Notes under the pieces: generated by a model
Told to the model about the DNA's origin: nothing
Databases searched by the model: none
Seen by the model: only the letters and a program-made list of their open reading frames with translations
Source: an uncultured Actinomycetales bacterium
GTDB taxonomy: Bacteria; Actinomycetota; Actinomycetes; CAXTBU01
Reading direction: 5' to 3'
NCBI GenBank assembly: GCA_964237095.1
Contig: CAXSIB010000001.1
Location: 1-28,011 of the forward strand
Length of the DNA: 28,011 nucleotides
Translations under genes and position numbers: made by a program
Part shown: positions 6,490-26,329 of the stretch, in pieces
How the letters are laid out: each line of letters starts with the position of its first letter
How positions within the stretch are numbered: the first letter of the stretch is position 1

Positions 6490-7257
6490 TCACGCCTCGC
6501 AGGTCCCGAGCATGTCGGCGAGGGACCGGCGGTCGGCCACGGTGACCGTGAGGGAGTAGGTGCGGCAGACCAGCACGTACCGCTCGGCGAGGGCGCAGCG
6601 GATCCCGGGACGCGGGAACCAGACGGCCGGGACCGCGTGCTCGCAGGGCCCCGGCGCCCGCAGGCAGCCGGCCCAGTCGCCCGGGATCTCGTCGCTCTTG
6701 AGCTGGTTCTCCGCCGCGGAGACCGACAGGAGCTCCCGCGGGTCGTTGGCGAAGTCCAGGCGCTCCCGGGCCGGCCACGTCCGGGCGCCGAGGTCCCACG
6801 CGGCGGCGAGGGGGACGAGGTGGTCGATCTGGATGGTGGTCGTCGCCCGCCCCGAGTAGGGGTCGCGGAGGACGGCCGCCGACCCGCGGTCCCGGCGGAT
6901 GACGTCGGTGCGGGTGTCGACCCCGTCGTGGCCGTCGGCCACGTCGACGTCGTCCGACCAGGCCGGGCCGAAGACGCAGGTGTGCCCGCTCCCGCAGGAG
7001 CGGTCGTACCCCGCGACGTGCGGGCGGGCGGGGACGACCGCGAGAGCGGCGAGGGCGGCGCGGCTGGCGGCCGCCGGCCCGAGGGGGACCAGCGGGACCG
7101 ACAGGTCGGCCGCGACCGGCACCGGACGGCCGTCGCCGCGCAGCGCTCCCAGCAGGAGCGAGGTGGTGACGGCGAACAGCGCGACCAGCAGCGCGTCACG
7201 CGCCAGCCGCACGGCGCGCCGGGCCGGCGGCACCTGGTCCCCCTCGTCGACGGCCAC
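6490..7257 (-). CDS. DUF1524/GmrSD-C-type HNH nuclease with N-terminal hydrophobic anchor
   Basis: YDR..FGPAWSDD, DPYSG, IQIDHLVPLAAAWDLGA, FANDP.ELLSVSAAENQLKSD; hydrophobic ALLVALFAVTTSLLLGAL near N-terminus. Confidence 0.85.
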   Translation of the reverse strand: MAVDEGDQVPPARRAVRLARDALLVALFAVTTSLLLGALRGDGRPVPVAADLSVPLVPLGPAAASRAALAALAVVPARPHVAGYDRSCGSGHTCVFGPAWSDDVDVADGHDGVDTRTDVIRRDRGSAAVLRDPYSGRATTTIQIDHLVPLAAAWDLGARTWPARERLDFANDPRELLSVSAAENQLKSDEIPGDWAGCLRAPGPCEHAVPAVWFPRPGIRCALAERYVLVCRTYSLTVTVADRRSLADMLGTCEA

Positions 7258-10214: not shown

Positions 10215-11978
10215 ATGGTGACCCGCATGTCGACCCTGTTCCTGCGCACCCTGCGGGACAACCCGGCCGACGCCGAGCTCCCGGGGCACCGCCTCCTCGT
10301 CCGCGGCGGTTACATCCGTCGCGCCGCCCCCGGCATCTCGTCCTGGCTGCCGATGGGCCTGCGGGTGCTCCGCCGGGTCGAGGCGATCGTGCGGGCGGAG
10401 ATGGACGCCGCGGGTGCGCAGGAGGTGCACTTCCCGGCGCTGCTGCCCCGCGAGCCCTACGAGGCCACGGGCCGTTGGACGGAGTACGGCGACGGGATCT
10501 TCCGGCTGAAGGACCGCCGGGGCGGTGACTACCTCCTGGGCCCGACGCACGAGGAGATGTTCACGCTCCTCGTGAAGGACCTCTACTCCTCCTACAAGGA
10601 CCTGCCGCTCGCGCTCTACCAGATCCAGACGAAGTACCGCGACGAGGCCCGCCCCCGGGCCGGTCTCCTGCGGGGGCGCGAGTTCATCATGAAGGACTCG
10701 TACTCCTTCGACCTCGACGAGGAGGGCCTGGCGCGCTCCTACGAGGTCCACCGCGCCGCCTACGAGGCGATCTTCGTGCGTCTCGGGCTGCCCTACGTGA
10801 TCGTCTCGGCGATGGCGGGGGCCATGGGCGGGTCGCGCAGCGAGGAGTTCCTCGCGCCGGCGGAGAACGGCGAGGACACCTACGTGCGCAGCCCCGGCGG
10901 GTACGCGGCCAACGTGGAGGCGGTGCGCACGGTCGTGCCGCCGGACCTGCCGCTCGACGGACTCCCCCCGGCGCAGGTGCACGACACCCCCGACAGCCCG
11001 ACGATCGCCAGCCTCGTGGCCCTGCTGCAGGAGCGTCTGCCCCGGCCGGACCGGGCGTGGACCGCCGCGGACACGCTGAAGAACGTGATCGTGCGGCTCG
11101 TCGCCCCGGACGGCTCGTGGGAGCCCCTCGCGATCGGCCTGCCCGGCGACCGCGACGTCGACCCCGTGCGACTGGAGGCCGCGGTGTACCCGGCGTCCGT
11201 GGAGCCGTTCACCGACGAGGACTTCGCGGCCCACCCCACCCTCGTCAAGGGCTACATCGGCCCCGGCGGGCTGGGCACGGCGTCGCCCGGCGGCATCCGG
11301 TACCTCCTCGACCCTCGGGTCGTCACCGGGACCGCGTGGGTCACGGGCGCGAACGAGCGGGGACGCCACGTCCTCGGGCTCGTCGCGGGCCGGGACTTCA
11401 CCGGCGACGGCACGGTGGAGGCGGCGGAGGTCCGCGTCGGGGACCCGGCCCCGGACGGCTCCGGCCCGCTCGCGGCCGCCCGCGGCATCGAGATCGGGCA
11501 CGTCTTCGCCCTGGGGCGGAAGTTCGCCGAAGCCCTCGGGCTGACCGTCCTGGACGAGAGGGGACAGCAGGTCACGGTGACGATGGGCTCCTACGGCCTC
11601 GGCGTCACCCGCGCGGTCGCGGCCGTCGCGGAGCTCCACCACGACGACCGCGGCCTGCGCTGGCCGCGGTCGGTGGCGCCGTTCGACGTGTACGTGGTCG
11701 CGGTCGGGCGTACCCCCGAAGCAGTCGAGGCCACCGCGGCCCTGGCCACGGCGCTGGAGGCCGCGGGCCTGTCGGTGCTGCTCGACGACCGGCCGCGGGT
11801 GAGTGTCGGGGTGAAGCTGACCGACGCCGAGCTGCTCGGGATCCCCGACATCGTGGTCGCCGGGCGCGGCCTCGCGACCGGGACCGTCGAGCACGTCGAC
11901 CGCATCTCCGGCGACCGCCTCGAGGTGGGGCTGGCCGAGATCGCGGGTCGCCTCGCCGCTCTGCGTCCGGCCGCCTGA
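10215..11978 (+). CDS. proS: Proline--tRNA ligase, bacterial type with INS editing domain
   Basis: [54 protein letters not shown], editing-domain TLKNV and [17 protein letters not shown]-terminal anticodon domain. Confidence 0.97.
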
Positions 11979-12280: not shown

Positions 12281-13663
12281 ATGAGGTCGTGGATGCGAAC
12301 GGGTGCGGTGGCGGTCGCCGTCGCCGGGCTGCTGGGGGTGCCCGCCGCGAGCGGCTGGGCACGGACGCCGGCACCGGTGCGGGGGCTGACCACCCAGCGG
12401 GCGGCGGCGAACACCGTCCCCCGGCTGCGGGCCCAGCTCCGGGCGGGGACGCTGGCGAGCAGCCACGGCACCCTCGCCGTCTGCGCGGTGCACCACCTGG
12501 CCTGCCGGGCCGAGGTGCTGACCTCGTCGAAGACGTCGAAGGACCTGCTGATCACCGGGACGCCCGTCGGGTACGGCGCCACCGACCTCGAGGCCGCCTA
12601 CGGGACCAACGCGACCGACGGCGGGACCGGGACGATCGCGATCATCGACGCCGGGGCGTACCCGACGCTCGAGTCCGACCTCACGATCTACCGCGACGCC
12701 TACGGCCTGCCCCGGTGCACCGTCGCGAGCGGCTGCTTCAAGCAGGTCACCTACAAGGGTGGTGCGCCCTACCAGCCGTCGACGGACGAGTTCACCTCCT
12801 TCGTCGAGGAGCTGGTCTCCCTGGAGACGGCGCTGGACGTCGACATGGCGTCGGCGGCCTGTCCGCGTTGCAAGATCGTCGAGATCCAGATCCCGGCCCT
12901 CGACGCGGCTCCGGAGAGCCAGGCCGACGAGGACGTCGCGACGCTGCACTTCGCGCAGGCGACGCAGGAGGCGGTCCGCCTCGGCGCGAAGTCCGCGAGC
13001 ATCAGCTACGGCTACGACGCGGACACCTACACCGACACGGGCAGCCCGGCGGCCGACATGCGCCACCACGGCATCGCCGTCGTCGCCTCCAGCGGGGACA
13101 GCGGGGTCAACCTCGGCGGCAACAGCTGGCCGGCGGACCTGACCACGGTGATCGCCGCGGGTGGCACGTCCCTCTACACCGACACGACGGTGGCGCGCGG
13201 CTACACCGAGACCGCCTGGAACGGCGCGGGCAGCGGGTGCACGTTCGACCTCGGACCGGCGGTCGGGCAGCCCGAGTCGGTGGCCGCGGCGTGCTTCGGC
13301 AACCGGACCGACACCGACATCTCGGCCGTCGCGGACCCCTACACCGGGGTCGCGGTCTACAACAGCTACGCCCCGGCCACGGGCTTCCCCTACGGGTTCG
13401 TCGTCGTCGGCGGGACCAGCGCGTCCTCGCCGTTCATCGCGGGGATGTACGCCCGCGCCGGGGTGCCGTCGACGGTGGTCGGCCCGAGCGCCCTCTACAC
13501 GGGTTCCGGGACGCGGTTCAACGACGTCCTCATCGGCGCCAACGACTACCCGGGGGAGTGCGAGTCCTACGGCTACGACGACACGCGGCTCTGCACCTCC
13601 GGACCCGGCTGGGACGGGCCGACCGGGCGCGGCACCCCGAAGGGCCTGAAGACCTTCCGCTGA
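12281..13663 (+). CDS. Secreted S53 (sedolisin-like) serine peptidase
   Basis: Signal peptide; ETALDVDM (Glu/Asp of triad), ASSGDSG (oxyanion Asp), GGTSASSP (Ser nucleophile), GWDGPTGRGTP Ca-binding end. Confidence 0.9.
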   Translation: MRSWMRTGAVAVAVAGLLGVPAASGWARTPAPVRGLTTQRAAANTVPRLRAQLRAGTLASSHGTLAVCAVHHLACRAEVLTSSKTSKDLLITGTPVGYGATDLEAAYGTNATDGGTGTIAIIDAGAYPTLESDLTIYRDAYGLPRCTVASGCFKQVTYKGGAPYQPSTDEFTSFVEELVSLETALDVDMASAACPRCKIVEIQIPALDAAPESQADEDVATLHFAQATQEAVRLGAKSASISYGYDADTYTDTGSPAADMRHHGIAVVASSGDSGVNLGGNSWPADLTTVIAAGGTSLYTDTTVARGYTETAWNGAGSGCTFDLGPAVGQPESVAAACFGNRTDTDISAVADPYTGVAVYNSYAPATGFPYGFVVVGGTSASSPFIAGMYARAGVPSTVVGPSALYTGSGTRFNDVLIGANDYPGECESYGYDDTRLCTSGPGWDGPTGRGTPKGLKTFR

Positions 13664-13780: not shown

Positions 13781-15193
13781 GTGGCCCGTCAGCGCGTCCT
13801 CACCCCGCAGGGGGAGGACTTCCCCGCCTGGTACCAGGACGTCGTGGCGAAGGCGGAGCTGGCCGAGTCCGGGCCGGTCCGCGGGACGATGGTCATCCGG
13901 CCCTACGGCTACGCGCTCTGGGAGCGGATGCAGGCCGAGCTCGACGCGCGGATCAAGGCCACCGGCGCGCGCAACGCCTACTTCCCGCTGTTCATCCCGG
14001 AGTCCTACCTGCACCGGGAGGCCGAGCACGTCGCCGGCTTCAGTCCCGAGCTCGCGGTCGTGACCCACGCCGGCGGGAAGGTCCTCGAGGAGCCGGTCGT
14101 CGTGCGGCCCACCTCGGAGACCGTGGTCGGGGAGTACCTCGGGAAGTGGGTCCAGTCCTGGCGGGACCTGCCCCTGCTGCTCAACCAGTGGGCGAACGTG
14201 GTGCGCTGGGAGCTGCGGCCGCGGATCTTCCTGCGCACGACGGAGTTCCTCTGGCAGGAGGGGCACACCGCGCACGCGGACGCCGCCGACGCGAGCGCCT
14301 ACGCACGGCGGATCCTCGACGACGTCTACGCGGACTTCATGGTGTCGGTGCTGGCGATCCCGGTCGTCCGCGGGCGGAAGACCGCGAAGGAGCGCTTCGC
14401 CGGGGCGGTGGACACCCTCACCTGCGAGGCGATGATGGGCGACGGGCGCGCCCTGCAGATGGGCACGTCGCACGAGCTCGGCCAGAACTTCGCGCGGGCG
14501 TTCGGCATCGACTTCCTCGACGCGGCCGGCGAGCGCCGCCTCGCGCACACCACGTCCTGGGGCTCGTCGACCCGCATGGTCGGCGGCCTGATCATGTGCC
14601 ACGGCGACGATGCGGGGCTCCGGGTGCCGCCCGCGCTGGCCGCGGTCCAGGTGCTGGTGACCCTCGTGCGGGCCGATCCCGAGGTCGACCGGGTCGCGCG
14701 AGCACTGCTCTCGGAGCTGCTGGCGGCCGGGGTCCGCGCCGAGCTCGACGACCGGGTCGACGTCCAGTACGGCCGCCGCGCCGTCGACGCCGAGCTGAAG
14801 GGCTACCCCGTGCGGGTGGAGGTCGGGCCGCGCGACCTCGCGACCGGGGTCGTCACCGTCGTCCGGCGGATCCCCGGCGAGTACACCACGGTCGCCCTCG
14901 CGGCGGTCGCGGACACCGTGGTCGACGCCCTCGCCCGGGACCAGGCGGCGCTGCTCGCCGAGGCCACCCGCCGGCGCGACGAGCGGACCGTCGACGTCGA
15001 CACCGTCGAGGATGCCGCGGCGGCCGCGGCGACCGGGTGGGCCCGCATCGCGTGGTCCACCCTCGGCGTCGCCGGCGAGGAGACCCTGTCCCAGCGGGGT
15101 GTCACCGTGCGCTGCCTCGTCCGCGAGGACGGCGGCGTCCCCGATGCCGGCGACGACGCCGGGCTGGTCGCGGTGGTCGCCCGCGCGTACTGA
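13781..15193 (+). CDS. proS: Proline--tRNA ligase, eukaryote/archaeal-like type (no INS domain)
   Basis: DFPAWYQDVV.KAELA, VRGTMVIRPYGYALWE, YFPLFIP, RPTSET, NQWANVVRWE.R.R.FLRTTEFLWQEGHTAH, ERFAGA, LQMGTSH.LGQNF, TSWG.STRMVG, terminal ARAY. Confidence 0.96.
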   Translation: MARQRVLTPQGEDFPAWYQDVVAKAELAESGPVRGTMVIRPYGYALWERMQAELDARIKATGARNAYFPLFIPESYLHREAEHVAGFSPELAVVTHAGGKVLEEPVVVRPTSETVVGEYLGKWVQSWRDLPLLLNQWANVVRWELRPRIFLRTTEFLWQEGHTAHADAADASAYARRILDDVYADFMVSVLAIPVVRGRKTAKERFAGAVDTLTCEAMMGDGRALQMGTSHELGQNFARAFGIDFLDAAGERRLAHTTSWGSSTRMVGGLIMCHGDDAGLRVPPALAAVQVLVTLVRADPEVDRVARALLSELLAAGVRAELDDRVDVQYGRRAVDAELKGYPVRVEVGPRDLATGVVTVVRRIPGEYTTVALAAVADTVVDALARDQAALLAEATRRRDERTVDVDTVEDAAAAAATGWARIAWSTLGVAGEETLSQRGVTVRCLVREDGGVPDAGDDAGLVAVVARAY

Positions 15194-19415: not shown

Positions 19416-20573
19416 TCAGCCGGTCGCGGCCAGCGTGGTCTCGACGAGCCCCTCGGCCGCGGTGAGCGCCTTGCGGTCCGCCGCGTCCGCGGCCCGGCGG
19501 GCCTTGCGCGCACGGGTCTCGGCGACATCGGCGGCGGCGTCGGCCTTCGCGGCGGCGTGCTGAGCCGCGAGGAGCTTCAGGACCGCCGACTCGAGGCGGC
19601 CGTGGGACGCGGCGTCCCAGGCCTCGGGGTCCGCGCCGATCCGGCGCAGCGTGCCCGCGACCGTCAGCCCCGCATGGAAACGGTCGACGACGCGCGGGTC
19701 GACGTAGCTCTTGCGGGCCACGGCCGGGGTGTTGCCCAGCTGCTCCGAGACGGCCTTCATGACCTCGTTGACCGACCGCTTCTGCCGGGTCGCGCTCGCG
19801 CCGGCGTCGTAGCGGGCGGCGAGGTCGGCCGCCGCGAGCACGGTGCCGTGCCAGGTCCGGAAGTCCTTCGCGGTGACGCTGTCGCCGACGACCTCGTGCA
19901 GGTACCGGTTGATGTCGGTGCTCGTCACGTCGTGCCAGCGGTCGTTCTCCCGCCAGGCCAGGAGGTCGTCCCCGCCGCCGGTCCGCCGCTTCAGGGTGGA
20001 GATCGCATCCCGGACGGCGGGGTCGGTGATGACGATCCGGCGGTCCTTGCCGGCCTTGGCGATGTAGCGGAAGCGCACCTCGGACTTCCCGACCACGACG
20101 TGCTCGCGCAGCAGGGTGGCGAGGCCGTAGCTGTGGTTCTCCTCCGCGTACTCCTCGCTGCCGACCCGGAAGAAGCCCAGCTCCAGCAAGCGGAACGCGG
20201 TCGCGAGGGCACGCTCGCGCGGCATCCCCCGCAGCGCGAGGTGCTCCTGGACGACCTTCCGGGCGGCGGGGAGCCGGCGGGCCACGAACACGATCCGGTC
20301 GTGCTTCGCGCGGTCGCGCTGCTCGCGCCAGTCCGGGTGGTAGCGGTACTGGCGCCGGCCGCGGTCGTCGGTGCCGACCGCCTGGATGTGGCCGTTGGCG
20401 TACCGGCAGATCCACACGTCGGAGTAGGCGGGCGGGATCGCGAGGTGGGCGATGCGGTCGGTCACCTCGTGGTCGAGGATCCGTTTCCCGTCGGTGTCGA
20501 GGTAGGCCCAGCCCTTCCCCGACCGCCGCCGGCCGAAGCCGGGATCGGTGGGGGAGACGTGTCGCAGCCGCAT
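19416..20573 (-). CDS. Bacterial DNA topoisomerase IB
   Basis: AIPPAYSDVWIC...GHIQAVG.D.RGRRQYRYH; catalytic set FRVG (Arg), AKAG (Lys), KDFRTW (Arg), LGNT (Asn), RKSY (Tyr); ATG 6 nt after CACGCT. Confidence 0.93.
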   Translation of the reverse strand: MRLRHVSPTDPGFGRRRSGKGWAYLDTDGKRILDHEVTDRIAHLAIPPAYSDVWICRYANGHIQAVGTDDRGRRQYRYHPDWREQRDRAKHDRIVFVARRLPAARKVVQEHLALRGMPRERALATAFRLLELGFFRVGSEEYAEENHSYGLATLLREHVVVGKSEVRFRYIAKAGKDRRIVITDPAVRDAISTLKRRTGGGDDLLAWRENDRWHDVTSTDINRYLHEVVGDSVTAKDFRTWHGTVLAAADLAARYDAGASATRQKRSVNEVMKAVSEQLGNTPAVARKSYVDPRVVDRFHAGLTVAGTLRRIGADPEAWDAASHGRLESAVLKLLAAQHAAAKADAAADVAETRARKARRAADAADRKALTAAEGLVETTLAATG

Positions 20574-20691
20574 CGTCTCAGCGTGCAACGACCTCGGGCG
20601 GGGCGCACCCGGAGGGCGGGCGGTCGCGTGCCCGGCCGTGTCGTGCGGGTGGTGGTGCGATCCGCCGACGGTCGCCCCGAGTCCTCTCGCG

Positions 20692-21094: not shown

Positions 21095-21388
21095 TCAGCG
21101 CCGAACGTCCCACGGGTCGACGTCACGGTCGTCCACAGCGAGATCGAGTTCGGCCCGTTCCCGGGCGAACCCGGCCAGACCCCATGCAGGAAGCTCCGTC
21201 GCACCGGCCGCGATGACCTCGACCGGCACGAAGCGCGTTCGGCGGCTGCGGTCGACGGCGTCGTGCGGCACCAGGTCGGCGACCGGGGTGCCGTTGCGGG
21301 TCACGGTGAAGGACTCCCCCTGCTCGACGCGGCGCATGATCACTCCGCTGTCGTTCCGCAGTTCTCGCTGGCTGATGGTCGTCTCCAC
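21095..21388 (-). CDS. Phd/YefM-family antitoxin
   Basis: TISQRELRNDSGVIMRRVEQGESFTVTRNGTPVADLVP; directly upstream of PIN gene. Confidence 0.9.
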   Translation of the reverse strand: METTISQRELRNDSGVIMRRVEQGESFTVTRNGTPVADLVPHDAVDRSRRTRFVPVEVIAAGATELPAWGLAGFARERAELDLAVDDRDVDPWDVRR

Positions 21389-21394
21389 CAGTCG

Positions 21395-21415
21395 ACCGTA
21401 GCACCACGGTGCTAC
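21395..21415 (-). promoter_or_regulatory. TA promoter: extended -10 overlapped by palindromic operator
   Basis: Perfect inverted repeat GTAGCACC-ac-GGTGCTAC (21398-21415) overlaps minus-strand TGC-TACGGT, which ends 6 nt before the antitoxin GTG. Confidence 0.8.
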
Positions 21416-21557
21416 AGGGGGCGGTCCGGTGGTCCCCGGACGCCGTCTCCGGGTGGCTAGTGTCCGATCGACCCGGACAGCATCCGGGACCACCCGGCAC
21501 CGACCGGGTCCGCCGCCCCCCGAGGGCCCTGCCGCGGCGCCGCGCGCCACACCCCAC

Positions 21558-23024
21558 ATGACCCCTCGCTCCACCGAAGGTCTCGACACCGACACCGACA
21601 CCGACCCGGCGCCGACCCCCGACCCGACGGTCGCCGCCGACCCGGCCGCCGTCCCCGGTCCCGGCTCGGTGCCCCCGCGGGCCGACGCGTCCGCGGTCTT
21701 CGACGACCAGCCGCACGCCGTGCGCACCGCGGTCGCCGGGCTCGCACGGGTGCTGACCGCGACCGCGGGCTCCGACGTCGGCGGCCTGCGCGCCCGCGCC
21801 GCCGCCCACGTCGGCTCGACTCCCGACCAGCTCGCGGTGGTCAACGCGGAGCTGCCGGTGACCGCCGCTCCGCTCGTCGTCCACGCCGTCGGCGAGCTGC
21901 TGCGCGCCCGACCCGAGCTGCGGGTCGCGGGCCGCGGCGGCAGCGGGTCGCCCGGGTACTCCCTGCTCACCCTCGACGTCGGCCGGCAGGTCGCCGAGCC
22001 CGCCAACGTGACGGTCTTCCTGGAGGCCACCGACCCCGACCCGGCCGAGGACGCGCCCCCGCCGCAGCCCCGCGGGGTGCTGCTGTGCGGACTGGACGAG
22101 ATGGACGAGTGGGTCCTCTGCCTGCACGTGCACCGCCGCGACGCCGTCACCGCCCAGCGCTGGCTGACCCGCTTCGTGGCCGACGCGCGCGGTCCCGGCA
22201 ACTTCTTCCGCGGCAAGACCCTGCTGGCGACGGCGCCCCGCGGCGACGTGCGGCTGCAGATCATCGCGCCCATGCAGGGTGATCGGGACGCCCTGGTGCT
22301 GCCGCCGGAGGTGTGGCGGGAGATCGAGACCAGCGTCGAGGGGCTGCGCCGGTACGGCGACGTCCTCGTCCGCTCCGGGCTCGGCGCCAACCGCGGCATC
22401 CTCATCGCCGGCCCGCCGGGCGTCGGCAAGACCGCGCTGTGCCGGGCGCTCGGCAGCGAGCTCGCCGGGGAGCGCACCGTCGTGACCCTGGATCCGGCCC
22501 TGCATCCCAGTGTGTGGGGCGATGTCTACGCCGCGGTCGCCGATCTCGGGCCCACGCTGGTGATCCTCGACGACCTCGACCTGGCCGTCGGCGACCGGCG
22601 CCTCGGCACGCCGGGACGGGGCCTCGCCGCGCTGCTCACCGCCCTGGACGGCACGTCCGGGGTCGGGTCGGTGCTGACGGTGGCGACCACCAACGACGCC
22701 TCGGCGCTGGACCCGGCGGCGATCCGGCCCGGGCGCTTCGACGTCCTGCTGCGGATCGAGGTCCCCGGAGCGGCCGCGGCGGCGGACATCCTGCGCGGCC
22801 ACCTCGACCGCCTCGCCCTGGCGGGCGGCGCCGAGGCCCCGGACGTGGACCTGACCCGGGTGACCCGCCTGGCCGCCGTCGCGACGATGTCGGGCGCGGA
22901 CCTGCGCGAGGTCGTCCGGCGCGCGGTGCTCGAGCACGGCACCGGCCTGCGGACCGAGCACCTGGTCGACATCGTCCGCAGCGGCCGCTGGAAGGCGGAG
23001 CAGCCGACCGGTGCCTTCCTGTGA
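21558..23024 (+). CDS. Standalone AAA+ ATPase with unrecognised N-terminal domain
   Basis: GPPGVGKT, LVILDDLD, TTNDASALDPAAIRPGRFD; start uncertain. Confidence 0.88.
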   Translation: MTPRSTEGLDTDTDTDPAPTPDPTVAADPAAVPGPGSVPPRADASAVFDDQPHAVRTAVAGLARVLTATAGSDVGGLRARAAAHVGSTPDQLAVVNAELPVTAAPLVVHAVGELLRARPELRVAGRGGSGSPGYSLLTLDVGRQVAEPANVTVFLEATDPDPAEDAPPPQPRGVLLCGLDEMDEWVLCLHVHRRDAVTAQRWLTRFVADARGPGNFFRGKTLLATAPRGDVRLQIIAPMQGDRDALVLPPEVWREIETSVEGLRRYGDVLVRSGLGANRGILIAGPPGVGKTALCRALGSELAGERTVVTLDPALHPSVWGDVYAAVADLGPTLVILDDLDLAVGDRRLGTPGRGLAALLTALDGTSGVGSVLTVATTNDASALDPAAIRPGRFDVLLRIEVPGAAAAADILRGHLDRLALAGGAEAPDVDLTRVTRLAAVATMSGADLREVVRRAVLEHGTGLRTEHLVDIVRSGRWKAEQPTGAFL

Positions 23025-23045
23025 GCCGCGTCCCTGGAGCCGGCC

Positions 23046-23498
23046 TCAGGCGGCCGGCGGGGTGGCGCGGACCACGAGGGCGTAGCTGCCGAGGCCGACC
23101 ACGGCGGACCCGGGGATCTCGGTTCGGTCGGTGACGACCGTCGTCAGCTCGCCGGTCCGGACGTCGAAGTCGACGTCGGCGACCTTGCCGAGGTCGGTGC
23201 CGGAGTCGTCGAGGACCCGCCGGCCGAGGATCTGGTGGTCCTTGTCGGCGAGGGTGGCCAGCTCCCCGTCCGGGGACACGAAGACCGCGGCCGACGGCAC
23301 CGTGACCGCGTCGCGCCCGAACGCGGTGAGGCCGGCCCAGGGCAGGACGTCGCCCTCGCCGGGGGTCTTCCGCAGCACGAGCGCGGCGACCCGGGCCGGG
23401 GCCGGGGTCGGTGCGACCACGAAGCGCGCCACCTTCCCGACCGTCGCCGCGTCGGACGTGCTCAGCACCTTCTGGCCTTTGGCCTCGGAGAACCTCAC
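23046..23498 (-). CDS. PRC-barrel protein (two barrels), 150 aa
   Basis: SEAKGQKVLSTSDAATVGKV..FVV and QILGRRVLDDSGTDLGKVADVDFD..TGEL; LPW..L.AFG.DAV; GTGA overlap with upstream gene. Confidence 0.85.
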   Translation of the reverse strand: MRFSEAKGQKVLSTSDAATVGKVARFVVAPTPAPARVAALVLRKTPGEGDVLPWAGLTAFGRDAVTVPSAAVFVSPDGELATLADKDHQILGRRVLDDSGTDLGKVADVDFDVRTGELTTVVTDRTEIPGSAVVGLGSYALVVRATPPAA

Positions 23499-24127
23499 GG
23501 GCGGCCACCACCCGTCACGCCGACGCGGGTGCTGCCGCCGGCCCCGGCCTGACCGGCGCCGGACCGGGTCCGGAAGGCGGTGACCGCCGCCCCGAAGCCG
23601 GCGAGGTCGTCGACGACGAAGTCCGTGATCGCCGCGGGCACGACGAGGGCCTCCCCCGACACCGCGATCGTGTCGGGCAGCGGGATGAGCGGGTGGTGGC
23701 GATTCGCGCCGAGGGCGTCGGACGGGTCGATCTGGTAGCCGCGGACGACCGCCGCCGCGGCGTCGACCTCGAGGACGACGTCGACCACCGAGCCCAGGTC
23801 GGTACCGCCGTCGGTGATCACCCGGGACCCGAGGACGAAGCCGCCCGAGCCGCCGTTGCGCCGCGCGGACCTCTCCACGACGGCGGCCTGCTCGACGAAC
23901 ACGTCGGCGCTCGCCACCATCAGCGCGTCCGGGCCGAGGGCGACGATCCCCGACCAGGGCAGCGACTCCTTGCGCGGGCCGGCGAACAGCCCGCGCCCGG
24001 CGAGGGTGAACCCGACCACGACGCCCTCGTCGTCGTAGACCACGTCGCGCACCTGCGCGAGGTCCTCCCCGCCGAGGGTCACCACCGGCCGCCCGACGAT
24101 CTCGGTCGCCTTCATCAGCAGGCTCAC
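23495..24127 (-). CDS. PRC-barrel protein (two barrels), 210 aa
   Basis: ATEIVGRPVVTLGGEDLAQVRDVVYD and VLGSRVITDGGTDLGSVVDVVLE; LPWSGIVALGPDALMV. Confidence 0.87.
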   Translation of the reverse strand: MSLLMKATEIVGRPVVTLGGEDLAQVRDVVYDDEGVVVGFTLAGRGLFAGPRKESLPWSGIVALGPDALMVASADVFVEQAAVVERSARRNGGSGGFVLGSRVITDGGTDLGSVVDVVLEVDAAAAVVRGYQIDPSDALGANRHHPLIPLPDTIAVSGEALVVPAAITDFVVDDLAGFGAAVTAFRTRSGAGQAGAGGSTRVGVTGGGRP

Positions 24128-24282
24128 CGCTTGCCGCCCTTCTCGTCGGGGGTGCCGGCGCGGGTGCCCTTAGGGGCCACCACCACGCCGCCGGTCCGGC
24201 GGCGCCGCTGGACGACCGCGAACGCGATCACCAGCACGACCACGACGACGACCACGAGCAGGACCCACTCCCACCAGTTCAC
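24124..24282 (-). CDS. 52-aa single-pass membrane microprotein
   Basis: MNWWEWVLLVVVVVVVLVIAFAVVQRRRRTGGVVVAPKGTRAGTPDEKGGKR*; NNS codon bias; TGA overlaps next GTG (GTGA); below ORF-track size cutoff. Confidence 0.8.
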   Translation of the reverse strand: MNWWEWVLLVVVVVVVLVIAFAVVQRRRRTGGVVVAPKGTRAGTPDEKGGKR

Positions 24283-24320
24283 GGGGGAACGATCCCACAC
24301 CGGTGGCTACCGTCGCAGGT

Positions 24321-25382
24321 GTGGAACCGGTCGCCGCGCTGCAACGGATCGCCTTTCTCCTCGAGCGCTCGCGCGGCGCCACCTACCGGGTGCAGGCGTT
24401 CCGGACGGCCGCCGCCACCCTGGCCGCGATCGACCCCGGCGAGGTCGCCGACCGCGCCCGCGCCGGGACCCTGACGCAGCTCCACGGGATCGGCGCCCGC
24501 ACCGCGGAGGTGGCCACCGAGGCCGTCGCGGGGGAGGTGCCGTCCTACCTCGTGCGGCTGGAGGCCGAGGCGGTCGACGCCGACCCGATCGCCGTCGGGG
24601 GCGAGACCCTGCTCGCGGCGCTGCAGGGGGACCTGCACAGCCACTCCACCGCCAGCGACGGCGGCAGCCCGCCCGCGGAGATGGCGGCGACCGCGGCGGT
24701 GCTCGGCCACCACTACCTCGCCCTCACCGACCACTCCCCGCGCCTCACCGTCGCGAACGGGCTCACCGCCGAGCGCCTCGCGACCCAGCTCGACGAGGTC
24801 GCCGCCATCAACGACGGACTCGCGACGGCGTCACCCGGTTTCCGGCTGCTCACGGGGATCGAGGTCGACATCGACGAGGACGGCGTGCTCGACCAGACCC
24901 CGGAGATGCTGGACCGCCTCGACGTCGTCGTCGCCTCGGTGCACTCCAAGCTGCGGATGGCGAGCGGGCCGATGACCCGCCGGATGCTCGACGCGGTCGC
25001 CGACCCGCACACCGACGTCCTCGGCCACTGCACCGGGCGGATGGTCGGCGACGGCGGCGCCCCGGGCTCCTCGCGCCGGACCGGCGGGCGGCCGGAGAGC
25101 ACGTTCGACGCCGCGCTGGTCTTCGCCGCGTGCGCCGAGCGCGCGGGCGCGGTGGAGATCAACTGCCGTCCCGAGCGGCTGGACCCGCCGCGCCGGCTGC
25201 TGCGGATGGCGGTCGAGGCCGGCTGTCTCTTCTCGATCGACACCGACGCCCACGCCCCGGGCCAGCTGGACTGGCGGCAGATCGGCTGCGCCCGCGCCGA
25301 GGAGTGCGGCGTGCCGGCCGACCGTGTGGTGAACACGTGGGACCTCGACCGCCTCCTGGCCTGGAGCCACCGCAACCGCTGA
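24321..25382 (+). CDS. PolX N-terminal/HhH domain fused to PHP domain, lacking polymerase core
   Basis: EPVAALQRIAFLLER...RVQAFRTAA, HhH LHGIGARTA; PHP ligands DLHSHS, TDH, GIEVD, VHS, GHC, DTDAH; GTG 7 nt after TACCGT. Confidence 0.88.
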   Translation: MEPVAALQRIAFLLERSRGATYRVQAFRTAAATLAAIDPGEVADRARAGTLTQLHGIGARTAEVATEAVAGEVPSYLVRLEAEAVDADPIAVGGETLLAALQGDLHSHSTASDGGSPPAEMAATAAVLGHHYLALTDHSPRLTVANGLTAERLATQLDEVAAINDGLATASPGFRLLTGIEVDIDEDGVLDQTPEMLDRLDVVVASVHSKLRMASGPMTRRMLDAVADPHTDVLGHCTGRMVGDGGAPGSSRRTGGRPESTFDAALVFAACAERAGAVEINCRPERLDPPRRLLRMAVEAGCLFSIDTDAHAPGQLDWRQIGCARAEECGVPADRVVNTWDLDRLLAWSHRNR

Positions 25383-25426
25383 CGCCGACCGGTGACAGCG
25401 GGCCGGCGCTGCCGGAGGATGGACGG

Positions 25427-26329
25427 ATGCCGGAACTGCCGGAGGTCCAGGCGCTCTCGTCGTTCCTGACCGAGCGCGCGGTCGGGCACGTCGTGCGCCG
25501 GGTCGACCCGGCGTCGTTCGCGGTGCTCAAGACCTTCGACCCGCCGGTGACCGCGCTCGCCGGCGGGACGGTCACGGCCGTCGCCCGCCACGGGAAGTTC
25601 CTCGACCTGACGGTCGCGCCGGCGGAGCCCGAGGTCGCGGGCACGCCCACGGGGCCGACGCTGCACCTGGTGTTCCACCTGTCCCGTGCGGGCTGGCTGC
25701 GCTGGAAGGACGAGCAGCCGGCGCTGCCGCCGAAGCCGGGGCGCGGCCCGCTCGGGCTCCGCGTCACCCTCGACGACGGCAGCGGCTTCGACCTCACCGA
25801 GCAGGGCACCCAGAAGCGGCTCGCGGTGTACGTCGTCACCGACCCGGCGCTGGTGCCGGGCATCGCGCGGCTCGGGCCCGACCCGTTCGACCCCCTGTTC
25901 ACCGCCGACACCCTCGACGCGATCCTGACCGCGGCCGGGCGCGCCCAGCTCAAGGGCATCCTGCGCGACCAGTCGGTGATCGCGGGGATCGGGAACGCCT
26001 ACTCCGACGAGATCCTGCACGCGGCCCGGCTGTCCCCGTTCAAGCCGGCGTCGGGGATGACCGCGGCCGAGCGGGCGACGCTGTTCGCCGCGATGCAGGA
26101 CACCCTCGCCGACGCCGTCGGCCGCTCCGCCGGGCTCGCGGCGGCCTCGCTGAAGGCGGAGAAGAAGGTGGGCCTGCGGGTCCACGCGCGGGCCGGCCAG
26201 CCCTGTCCGGTGTGCGGGGACACTGTGCGCGAGGTCTCGTTCGCGGACTCCGCCCTCCAGTACTGCCCGACCTGCCAGACCGGCGGCAAGCCCCTCGCCG
26301 ACCGCCGCCTCTCCCGCCTCGTCCGCTAG
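25427..26329 (+). CDS. Fpg/Nei-family DNA glycosylase/AP lyase (actinobacterial Fpg2-like)
   Basis: MPELPEV, RHGKFL, HLSRAGW, H2TH GIGNAYSDEILH, zinc finger C-x2-C-x16-C-x2-C. Confidence 0.93.
   Translation: MPELPEVQALSSFLTERAVGHVVRRVDPASFAVLKTFDPPVTALAGGTVTAVARHGKFLDLTVAPAEPEVAGTPTGPTLHLVFHLSRAGWLRWKDEQPALPPKPGRGPLGLRVTLDDGSGFDLTEQGTQKRLAVYVVTDPALVPGIARLGPDPFDPLFTADTLDAILTAAGRAQLKGILRDQSVIAGIGNAYSDEILHAARLSPFKPASGMTAAERATLFAAMQDTLADAVGRSAGLAAASLKAEKKVGLRVHARAGQPCPVCGDTVREVSFADSALQYCPTCQTGGKPLADRRLSRLVR

Follow-up and report, generated by a model that had tools for sequence, protein, structure and literature searches.

PRC-barrel proteins are widespread, and a role is understood for only a few of them: the reaction-centre H subunit, RimM, CdvA and CdpB. 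In archaea, the paralogs CdpB1 and CdpB2 alternate along filaments that are held together by heterodimer and homodimer contacts, with SepF as their attachment to the membrane (10.1101/2023.03.28.534543). According to Zhao et al. (10.1101/2023.03.28.534520), no bacterial PRC-barrel protein except RimM has been characterised. Here, we describe a three-gene PRC cassette at positions 23046–24282 of a 28,011-nucleotide stretch of contig CAXSIB010000001.1 (assembly GCA_964237095.1), from an uncultured Actinomycetales bacterium; this whole stretch is referred to as the window. The cassette is a conserved, autonomous and translationally coupled operon that encodes a microprotein with a single transmembrane (TM) helix and two double-barrel paralogs, PRC-A and PRC-B, with CdpB-like models. 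We consider the odds slightly in favour of the products forming a membrane-tethered, CdpB-like PRC hetero-oligomer that is anchored by its own microprotein and acts as a conditional stress scaffold rather than as a core part of the divisome. Literature searches that combined PRC-barrel with actinobacteria, SigF, desiccation, Rhodococcus, Streptomyces or Mycobacterium returned no description of the PRC family or the peptide, and the author of the initial annotation likewise knew of no functional account of the trio. The cassette thus appears to be an undescribed PRC-barrel scaffold pair with a presumed membrane anchor.

The cassette occupies the minus strand of the window, which has a G+C content of 75.6%, and is laid out as follows.

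24124–24282, minus strand: microprotein gene, 52 amino acids (aa) from the GTG at 24282; the alternative GTG at 24300 would give 58 aa (24124–24300)
24283–24300, minus strand: candidate N-terminal extension MWDRSP, if the upstream GTG is the start; not conserved in the peptide family
24124–24127, minus strand: GTGA overlap of the TGA stop of the peptide gene with the GTG start of PRC-A; translational coupling
23495–24127, minus strand: PRC-A, 210 aa; the two PRC barrels are followed by a conserved C-terminal helix and a short tail rich in Gly
23495–23498, minus strand: GTGA overlap of the PRC-A stop with the GTG start of PRC-B
23046–23498, minus strand: PRC-B, 150 aa; double PRC barrel, paralogous to PRC-A, aligned with it in register and devoid of the C-terminal helix

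The initial annotation had read this region as three minus-strand genes chained through two GTGA overlaps, the first encoding a 52-aa peptide with a Trp-rich start, one TM helix and a basic cytoplasmic tail, and the other two encoding paralogous proteins with two PRC barrels each. Inspection of the open reading frames (ORFs) bears out both overlaps, the peptide matches the sequence and is conserved family-wide, and the double-barrel assignment is sustained by the Pfam matches, structural models and profile alignment given below. Read from the overlaps, the three genes are co-transcribed and translationally coupled. No obvious Shine-Dalgarno sequence precedes the peptide ORF in the window, which has two candidate GTG starts. 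The GTG at 24282 is favoured because the family alignment and consensus place the start there, and the upstream GTG at 24300 may be an alternative. The divergent gene for a protein with helix-hairpin-helix (HhH) and PHP domains has its called start at 24303 on the plus strand, 2 nt past the candidate extension. The upstream region of the peptide overlaps this gene, which starts less than 20 nt away. As the called PHP start and the candidate peptide starts lie only 2–20 nt apart, either each promoter must be situated inside the coding region of the opposite gene, or a start has been miscalled.

The coherence of the trio was evaluated from 81 loci, i.e., 80 retrieved from the 379 places that match PRC-A in a species-level genome collection, together with the window itself. 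A homologous peptide ORF ends between −8 and +4 nt from the PRC-A start in all 81 loci, with a 4-nt overlap in 59 of them. PRC-B follows PRC-A in 79 loci, with an overlap of 1 or 4 nt in 72, and in the remaining two the contig stops earlier. Such regularity goes far beyond what chance would give. The neighbourhood check proposed in the initial annotation thus found the peptide ORF upstream of PRC-A in all of these loci, and the proposal of a single conserved, translationally coupled operon stands. Conversely, when 401 genomes from across the class (Actinomycetes) were searched with the peptide profile, each of the 28 adjacent matches lay beside a PRC-A match; three comparably scoring matches elsewhere cover the TM part only and lie inside long ORFs. 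Seven PRC-A-positive genomes of the class gave no peptide match, and among the five of these that were inspected, four have a divergent upstream peptide (TM segment followed by RRSRxG.V[IL]) and one has none, which gives a peptide in 32 of the 33 PRC-A-positive class genomes examined. Loci from other classes of Actinomycetota carry the peptide as well. No other gene is shared by more than seven of the 81 loci when ORFs with high G+C at the third codon position within ~4 kb are clustered, and 157 Pfam families are represented among the 141 nearest flanking proteins, each of them at most six times. Na+/H+ exchangers, MscS channels and DUF2254 proteins recur slightly, with 4–5 of the 141 flanking proteins each, and related loci share synteny. 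The three genes constitute one autonomous module that is inherited together across Actinomycetota.

In the genome of the window, a metagenome-assembled genome (MAG) that is 82% complete and consists of 650 contigs, each trio gene is present in one copy, and the remaining genes with PRC domains are from different families. Of the 401 sampled class genomes, 35 were found to have PRC-A (~9%; 14 of 174 genera), as were 10 of 301 genomes sampled from the phylum (~3%). With tblastn, seven plasmid records with PRC-A were located: four come from Rhodococcus, and of these one is typed as conjugative; two are filings of the Streptantibioticus cattleyicolor megaplasmid; and one is from Streptomyces fungicidicus. 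The phage collection contained no PRC-A match. Because of the patchy distribution among genomes and the plasmid records, we regard the cassette as accessory and probably horizontally mobile. A collection of 5.8 billion proteins holds 811 relatives of PRC-A, which bear generic names only (‘PRC-barrel domain-containing protein’, ‘YrrD’). As a side observation, one PRC-A match in the sampled genomes (G335:C1:446203-446776) consists of two abutting pieces, covering profile positions 3–85 and 79–193, in different open frames, which suggests a frameshifted or split copy.

The microprotein of the window begins with MNWWEW, continues with 18 hydrophobic residues that constitute the TM helix (Val7–Val24), and then presents QRRRR-T-GGVVV and a variable basic tail of Gly, Pro and Lys. 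The predicted topology is N-out, C-in. The consensus over the 81 loci is M-x-W-W-x-W, ~20 hydrophobic residues, Q-A-R-R-R-(R/S)-G-G-V-I and a variable tail. In an alignment of 49 sequences, Gln25 and Arg28 are invariant, and Met1, Trp3, Trp4, Trp6, Arg29, Gly31 and Gly32 are conserved in at least 90%; the most conserved part of the peptide in this alignment is the cytoplasmic juxtamembrane motif, beyond the TM helix alone. Substitutions in the ORF number 32451 at third, 21327 at first and 13689 at second codon positions. When compared with 1.84 billion representative proteins, the peptide profile recovers 280 clusters at 50% identity, 78 of which have E ≤ 1e-10, and nearly all are stand-alone proteins of 38–140 aa. 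The peptide in the window matches its family hidden Markov model with an E value of 3.4e-17 and occupies the canonical position directly upstream of PRC-A. No Pfam or NCBIfam model reaches its cut-off with the peptide, and the ESM Atlas yields only unnamed ‘hypothetical protein’ clusters with scores below 0.9. That the peptide is missing from annotation, as noted in the initial annotation, is true in part: of nine exact look-ups in a large protein collection, only one returned it, but RefSeq PGAP lists it as a ‘hypothetical protein’ on three Rhodococcus plasmids. From this conservation, the peptide is the product of a genuine, conserved single-TM membrane protein gene.

The position of the peptide ORF, directly upstream of PRC-A and overlapping its start, could alternatively mean that it is a translated leader only, which sets PRC-A expression via coupling; the lack of an obvious Shine-Dalgarno sequence and the two candidate GTG starts in the window copy agree with such a function. 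The leader-only explanation is contradicted by the TM helix and the conserved motif, which are not expected of a pure leader. The amino-acid sequence, with the invariant Gln25 and Arg28 and with both the WW-x-W and the GG-V-I motif, is conserved phylum-wide; third codon positions take up the largest number of substitutions; and the 280 clusters share the same architecture. We therefore give this explanation very little credence.

Two sets of database proteins deserve mention beside the peptide family. The candidate peptide–PRC fusions P0198 and P0170 were considered as Rosetta-stone evidence and rejected, since they resemble frameshifted assemblies. An 82-aa database protein, P0243, starts with the TM and RRRR-A-GG-I-I segment of the peptide family, and continues in frame with a segment, VRQRGT..HPGVNVG.GKDHTLFA, that resembles the C-terminal half of ribosomal protein L27; this protein may be either a chimeric gene call or a real fusion.

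As for the PRC proteins, the Pfam PRC family (PF05239; cut-off 21.2 bits) matches PRC-A in two stretches with an E value of 7e-14 (52.0 bits), and PRC-B with 3.5e-9 (37.0 bits). AlphaFold2 modelling with the family alignments returned two barrels for each protein, with predicted local distance difference test (pLDDT) values of 89.3 for PRC-A and 95.5 for PRC-B, and in PRC-A also a C-terminal helix at residues 175–196. This helix is associated with the conserved motif FVxDDLAGFGAAVxAFR at residues ~170–190. The two proteins align in register in hhalign (probability 98.8%, E value 1.4e-16), and are cytoplasmic-type double-barrel paralogs. In Nakamurella leprariae, PRC-A (L069:4001-5137) comprises 378 aa, with a Pro/Ala-rich low-complexity tail of ~180 residues after the conserved C-terminal helix. 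Because this tail contrasts with the short Gly-rich tail in the same position in the window copy, the PRC-A C-terminus is a variable and probably disordered appendage.

For both models, the first-ranked Foldseek match is the Archaeoglobus fulgidus CdpB1:CdpB2 heterodimer (PDB code 8qzo), with TM-scores of 0.70 in both normalisations for PRC-B and 0.66–0.69 (target-normalised) for PRC-A. VIA-align superposes the PRC-B model onto chain D of 8qzo with a Z score of 14.7 and a root-mean-square deviation of 2.2 Å for 128 residues, within model range 1–146 and across both barrels, whereas the best single-barrel match to this model has a Z score of 9.1. In this model-to-crystal comparison, the PRC barrels are paired through a pseudo-twofold heterodimer interface. 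The CdpB-like lead put forward in the initial annotation is thereby strengthened, since the closest solved structure is indeed CdpB1:CdpB2 and the match spans both barrels. The chain in 8qzo has 182 residues (150–168 observed), as compared with 92 and 76 residues for the separate chains in PDB entry 8onw; the CdpB preprint reports residues 1–92 and 1–76 as built (10.1101/2023.03.28.534543). These lengths suggest that CdpB1 and CdpB2 are both contained in the 8qzo chain. Given such a both-in-one chain, the PRC-B model would represent a covalent equivalent of the CdpB1:CdpB2 heterodimer, and the same probably holds for the PRC-A model.

The likeness to CdpB bears on a division or development scaffold, in which the PRC pair would work with SepF and FtsZ at the Z ring, as CdpB1/CdpB2 do, and the peptide would be an extra membrane anchor. 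Besides the CdpB1:CdpB2 heterodimer being the closest solved structure, the best sequence matches in the PDB are CdpB entries and MTH1859, although weak (E values 2e-5 to 0.04), and the genome of the window encodes SepF, FtsZ and DivIVA. Zhao et al. leave a division role of bacterial PRC-barrel proteins to be tested (10.1101/2023.03.28.534520). However, the SepF/FtsZ link proposed in the initial annotation found no genomic support: using the SepF, FtsZ and DivIVA proteins of the window genome as queries, no homolog was detected within ~4 kb of the trio in 88 loci, and in the window genome itself, sepF, ftsZ and divIVA are on other contigs. An occurrence in ~9% of the class and ~3% of the phylum genomes, with plasmid-borne copies in several strains, would also be atypical for a divisome component, and the NCBIfam model for the sporulation protein YlmC/YmxH scores only 11.9 bits, against a cut-off of 44.2. 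A core division function is for these reasons unlikely.

A stress-related context is seen on Rhodococcus plasmids, where the genes around the cassette encode HPF/RaiA, YegP, CsbD, DUF2254, superoxide dismutase, STAS, SPW-repeat and DUF4383 proteins, which are typical of general stress or dormancy. The upstream regions were inspected for a SigF/SigB-like motif, GTTT-N15-17-GGGTA, scored over nine positions, with 200-nt windows as controls. Among 76 regions upstream of the peptide, 14 match at eight or more of the nine positions, as compared with five of 231 regions upstream of neighbouring genes; the same threshold is reached by 0.7% of the control windows in these loci. A perfect motif is present in five of the 76 trio regions and in none of the 231 neighbouring-gene regions. 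The motif carriers are Rhodococcus, Williamsia, one Acidothermaceae isolate and several MAG lineages. Taken from sequence, context and promoter motifs lean towards a stress scaffold, which the initial annotation had named as an alternative to division. Since the cassette is accessory and plasmid-borne, unlinked to division genes and found in a stress-type context, a stress scaffold is likelier than a core division role.

Other searches for regulatory elements gave the following results. Scans of positions 22700–24700 for sigma-70 promoters and intrinsic terminators produced no match, and an Rfam scan of the window and 13 loci identified tRNAs only, with no match in the leaders. Among public sequencing runs, the best DNA match to the window is a lichen metagenome (share 0.92), which is probably the sample of origin, and no RNA run is listed. 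One clade of soil MAGs (L015, L019, L027, L034, L039, L041, L045, L048 and L052) has a conserved 5′ region (~130 nt upstream of the peptide start). Its elements are a −10-like box, G-TAGCCT/TAGTCT, at ~100–115 nt upstream, the hexamer CTGATC, and, directly ahead of the ribosome-binding site, CGCTCAGAGTC. The region has no match to an Rfam family, and could be a structured leader.

The RimM PRC barrel binds ribosomal protein S19, and a further possibility is that the PRC pair binds a ribosomal or RNA-processing partner and tethers it to the membrane in dormancy. C-terminal PRC barrels of RimM are among the next structural matches (Z scores 6.8–7.7, single barrel), and on plasmid NZ_CP046101 the trio divergently adjoins the gene for the hibernation factor HPF/RaiA. 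Nevertheless, the RimM match covers one barrel with a score far below that for CdpB, and the N-terminal domain of RimM is missing from the trio. The HPF adjacency occurs in one plasmid only, and no ribosomal gene recurs among the flanking families shown, except S17 (two of 141 flanking proteins). This makes a ribosome- or RNA-linked function highly improbable.

The architecture of the peptide, with a short TM segment and a basic tail, resembles that of small membrane toxins. A mobile toxin- or defence-like cassette could accordingly be imagined, in which the peptide is a membrane-active effector, comparable to type I toxins or holins, and the PRC proteins regulate or neutralise it. The module is self-contained, patchily distributed, found in varied contexts and present on plasmids; PHROG returns a weak spanin-like or TM-type match (E value 0.007); and nearby genes of the window encode a Phd-like antitoxin and an AAA ATPase similar to IetA. 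These two genes are not conserved with the trio, however, and PADLOC-DB 2.0 contains no family that matches the peptide, PRC-A or PRC-B at E ≤ 0.1. There is also no phage copy, and the cytoplasmic motif is conserved beyond the needs of a simple pore-former. The peptide gene comes first in the operon and is coupled to the genes of two larger scaffold-type proteins with high conservation; this organisation is, to our knowledge, atypical of known toxin–antitoxin types. A toxin or defence function hence appears improbable.

In the anchored PRC scaffold that we favour, the peptide would insert N-out, C-in, and its juxtamembrane Q-x-RRR-x-GG-V-I motif would dock the soluble PRC-A/PRC-B pair at the inner face of the membrane. 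The anchor would thus act in trans, in a role that is filled by the N-terminal TM helix in the reaction-centre H subunit and by SepF for archaeal CdpB. Each PRC chain would already contain the ‘heterodimer’ interface internally, which would leave the outer surfaces, where the counterparts of the CdpB1:CdpB1 and CdpB2:CdpB2 contacts lie, free to build a hetero-oligomer or short polymer of PRC-A and PRC-B under the membrane. The physical complex with 1:1:1 stoichiometry that was suggested in the initial annotation is putative. A conditional, stress-linked scaffold is preferred over a core divisome component because the cassette is accessory and sometimes plasmid-borne, because stress and dormancy genes are among its neighbours on Rhodococcus plasmids, and because a SigF/SigB-like motif precedes the trio in about one-fifth of the loci. 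A bolder version would make the trio a bacterial counterpart of the CdpB polymer, where the double-barrel paralogs polymerise under the membrane and are held there by the TM microprotein, as a self-anchoring, horizontally mobile skeleton that is switched on under stress, e.g., desiccation; we consider this version possible, yet doubtful.

Several observations weigh against the anchored stress scaffold. The contact between the peptide and the PRC proteins and the binding of PRC-A to PRC-B are both postulated, and the CdpB likeness originates from a predicted model, which by itself is no sign of polymerisation. No natural peptide–PRC fusion was found among the family matches, where the few long ones look like frameshifted assemblies, and one genome (G290) has PRC-A with no recognisable peptide upstream. 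The stress link is built on the contexts of a few plasmids, together with a promoter-like motif that a minority of the loci possess, and the motif carriers are partly related (four are Rhodococcus). The upstream region of the peptide in the window itself has no SigF/SigB-like motif, and the neighbours there, i.e., the AAA ATPase, the PolX-like PHP protein and Fpg/Nei, are not stress genes. A complex prediction with PRC-A, PRC-B and peptide residues 21–52 gave a score of 0.05 (mark 0.32), which speaks neither for nor against binding.

With regard to the other genes of the window, the gene for the 531-aa AAA ATPase (21429–23024, plus strand) converges on PRC-B, and 21 nt separate the two stop codons. 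In PADLOC, the ATPase is best matched by IetA models (1.6e-14) and TRIP13, and it is not conserved beside the trio elsewhere. A small ORF at 21095–21400 (minus strand) has a Phd/YefM antitoxin-like N-terminus (Pfam E value 1.6e-6, just below the gathering score). On the other side of the trio, and divergent to it, are the PolX-like HhH and PHP protein (24303–25382, plus strand) and an Fpg/Nei DNA glycosylase (25400–26329, plus strand). Farther away on the plus strand, a ProRS-like class II aminoacyl-tRNA synthetase with an editing domain (10215–11978) is followed by a 460-aa ORF that lacks a Pfam match (12281–13663) and by a shorter class II synthetase-like gene with core and HGTP anticodon domain (13781–15193), and the arrangement of these three genes is unusual. 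The minus strand encodes FhaA (327–1667; FhaA_N and FHA domains), a protein with a weak match to the GmrSD_C nuclease domain (6490–7257; 9e-6) and a bacterial type IB topoisomerase (19416–20588).

The cassette offers a compact and genetically tractable three-gene test for CdpB-like PRC assemblies in bacteria and for the route by which they reach the membrane, and its carriers include culturable strains of Rhodococcus, Williamsia, Nakamurella and Streptantibioticus. Williamsia maris DSM 44693 and Rhodococcoides trifolii CCM 7905 are examples of such carriers. The microprotein constitutes a conserved family of 280 clusters that is unnamed and often unannotated, an example of what is overlooked with default ORF cut-offs. 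If the link to stress is true, a structural component would be added to actinobacterial stress biology; should neither binding nor a phenotype emerge, the cassette stays a well-delimited conserved unknown.

Compared with known systems, the trio shares most with archaeal CdpB1/CdpB2 (PDB codes 8qzo and 8onw; Nussbaum et al. and Zhao et al., 2023 preprints). The PRC fold is the same, and two paralogs are encoded that act together, as we presume for the trio. Both pairs are cytoplasmic and depend on another component for attachment to the membrane, again a presumption in the case of the trio. Unlike CdpB, which is a single-barrel protein of ~10 kDa, the trio chains are covalent double barrels of 210 and 150 aa. 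The anchors also differ, since CdpB relies on the amphipathic helix of SepF, whereas a dedicated TM microprotein from the same operon is proposed here. Furthermore, CdpB is a near-universal archaeal core gene, while the trio is bacterial, accessory and sometimes plasmid-borne, and the sequence similarity between them is marginal (profile E values 2e-5 to 0.04).

The reaction-centre H subunit (PuhA) combines an N-terminal TM helix and one cytoplasmic PRC barrel in a single chain; in the trio, anchor and barrels are distributed over separate genes rather than joined in one polypeptide, the fold match is weak (Z scores 4.3–5.1), and no photosynthesis genes were seen among the window genes scanned. 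In RimM, one barrel superposes (Z scores 6.8–7.7), but RimM is a single-barrel housekeeping protein found in an rpsP–trmD context, and its N-terminal domain has no counterpart in the trio.

Among bacterial proteins, YlmC/YmxH (TIGR02888) from Firmicutes sporulation resembles the trio PRC proteins in being small PRC-barrel proteins with unknown mechanism, and has been predicted to form CdpB-like homomeric filaments (10.1101/2023.03.28.534543). It is a single-barrel protein that lacks a partner peptide, and PRC-A and PRC-B are not members of this family, as indicated by the NCBIfam score given above. Two other PRC proteins are under stress control: AvaK from Anabaena is a stress-induced protein with PRC and DUF2382 domains (PMC9804601), and SMb20522 from Sinorhizobium meliloti belongs to the RpoE2 regulon (PMC6180224). 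Neither has a double barrel or a TM peptide, DUF2382 is absent from the trio, and the relation is limited to the Pfam domain. Their control by general stress or dehydration nevertheless parallels the stress context and the SigF/SigB-like motif in part of the trio family.

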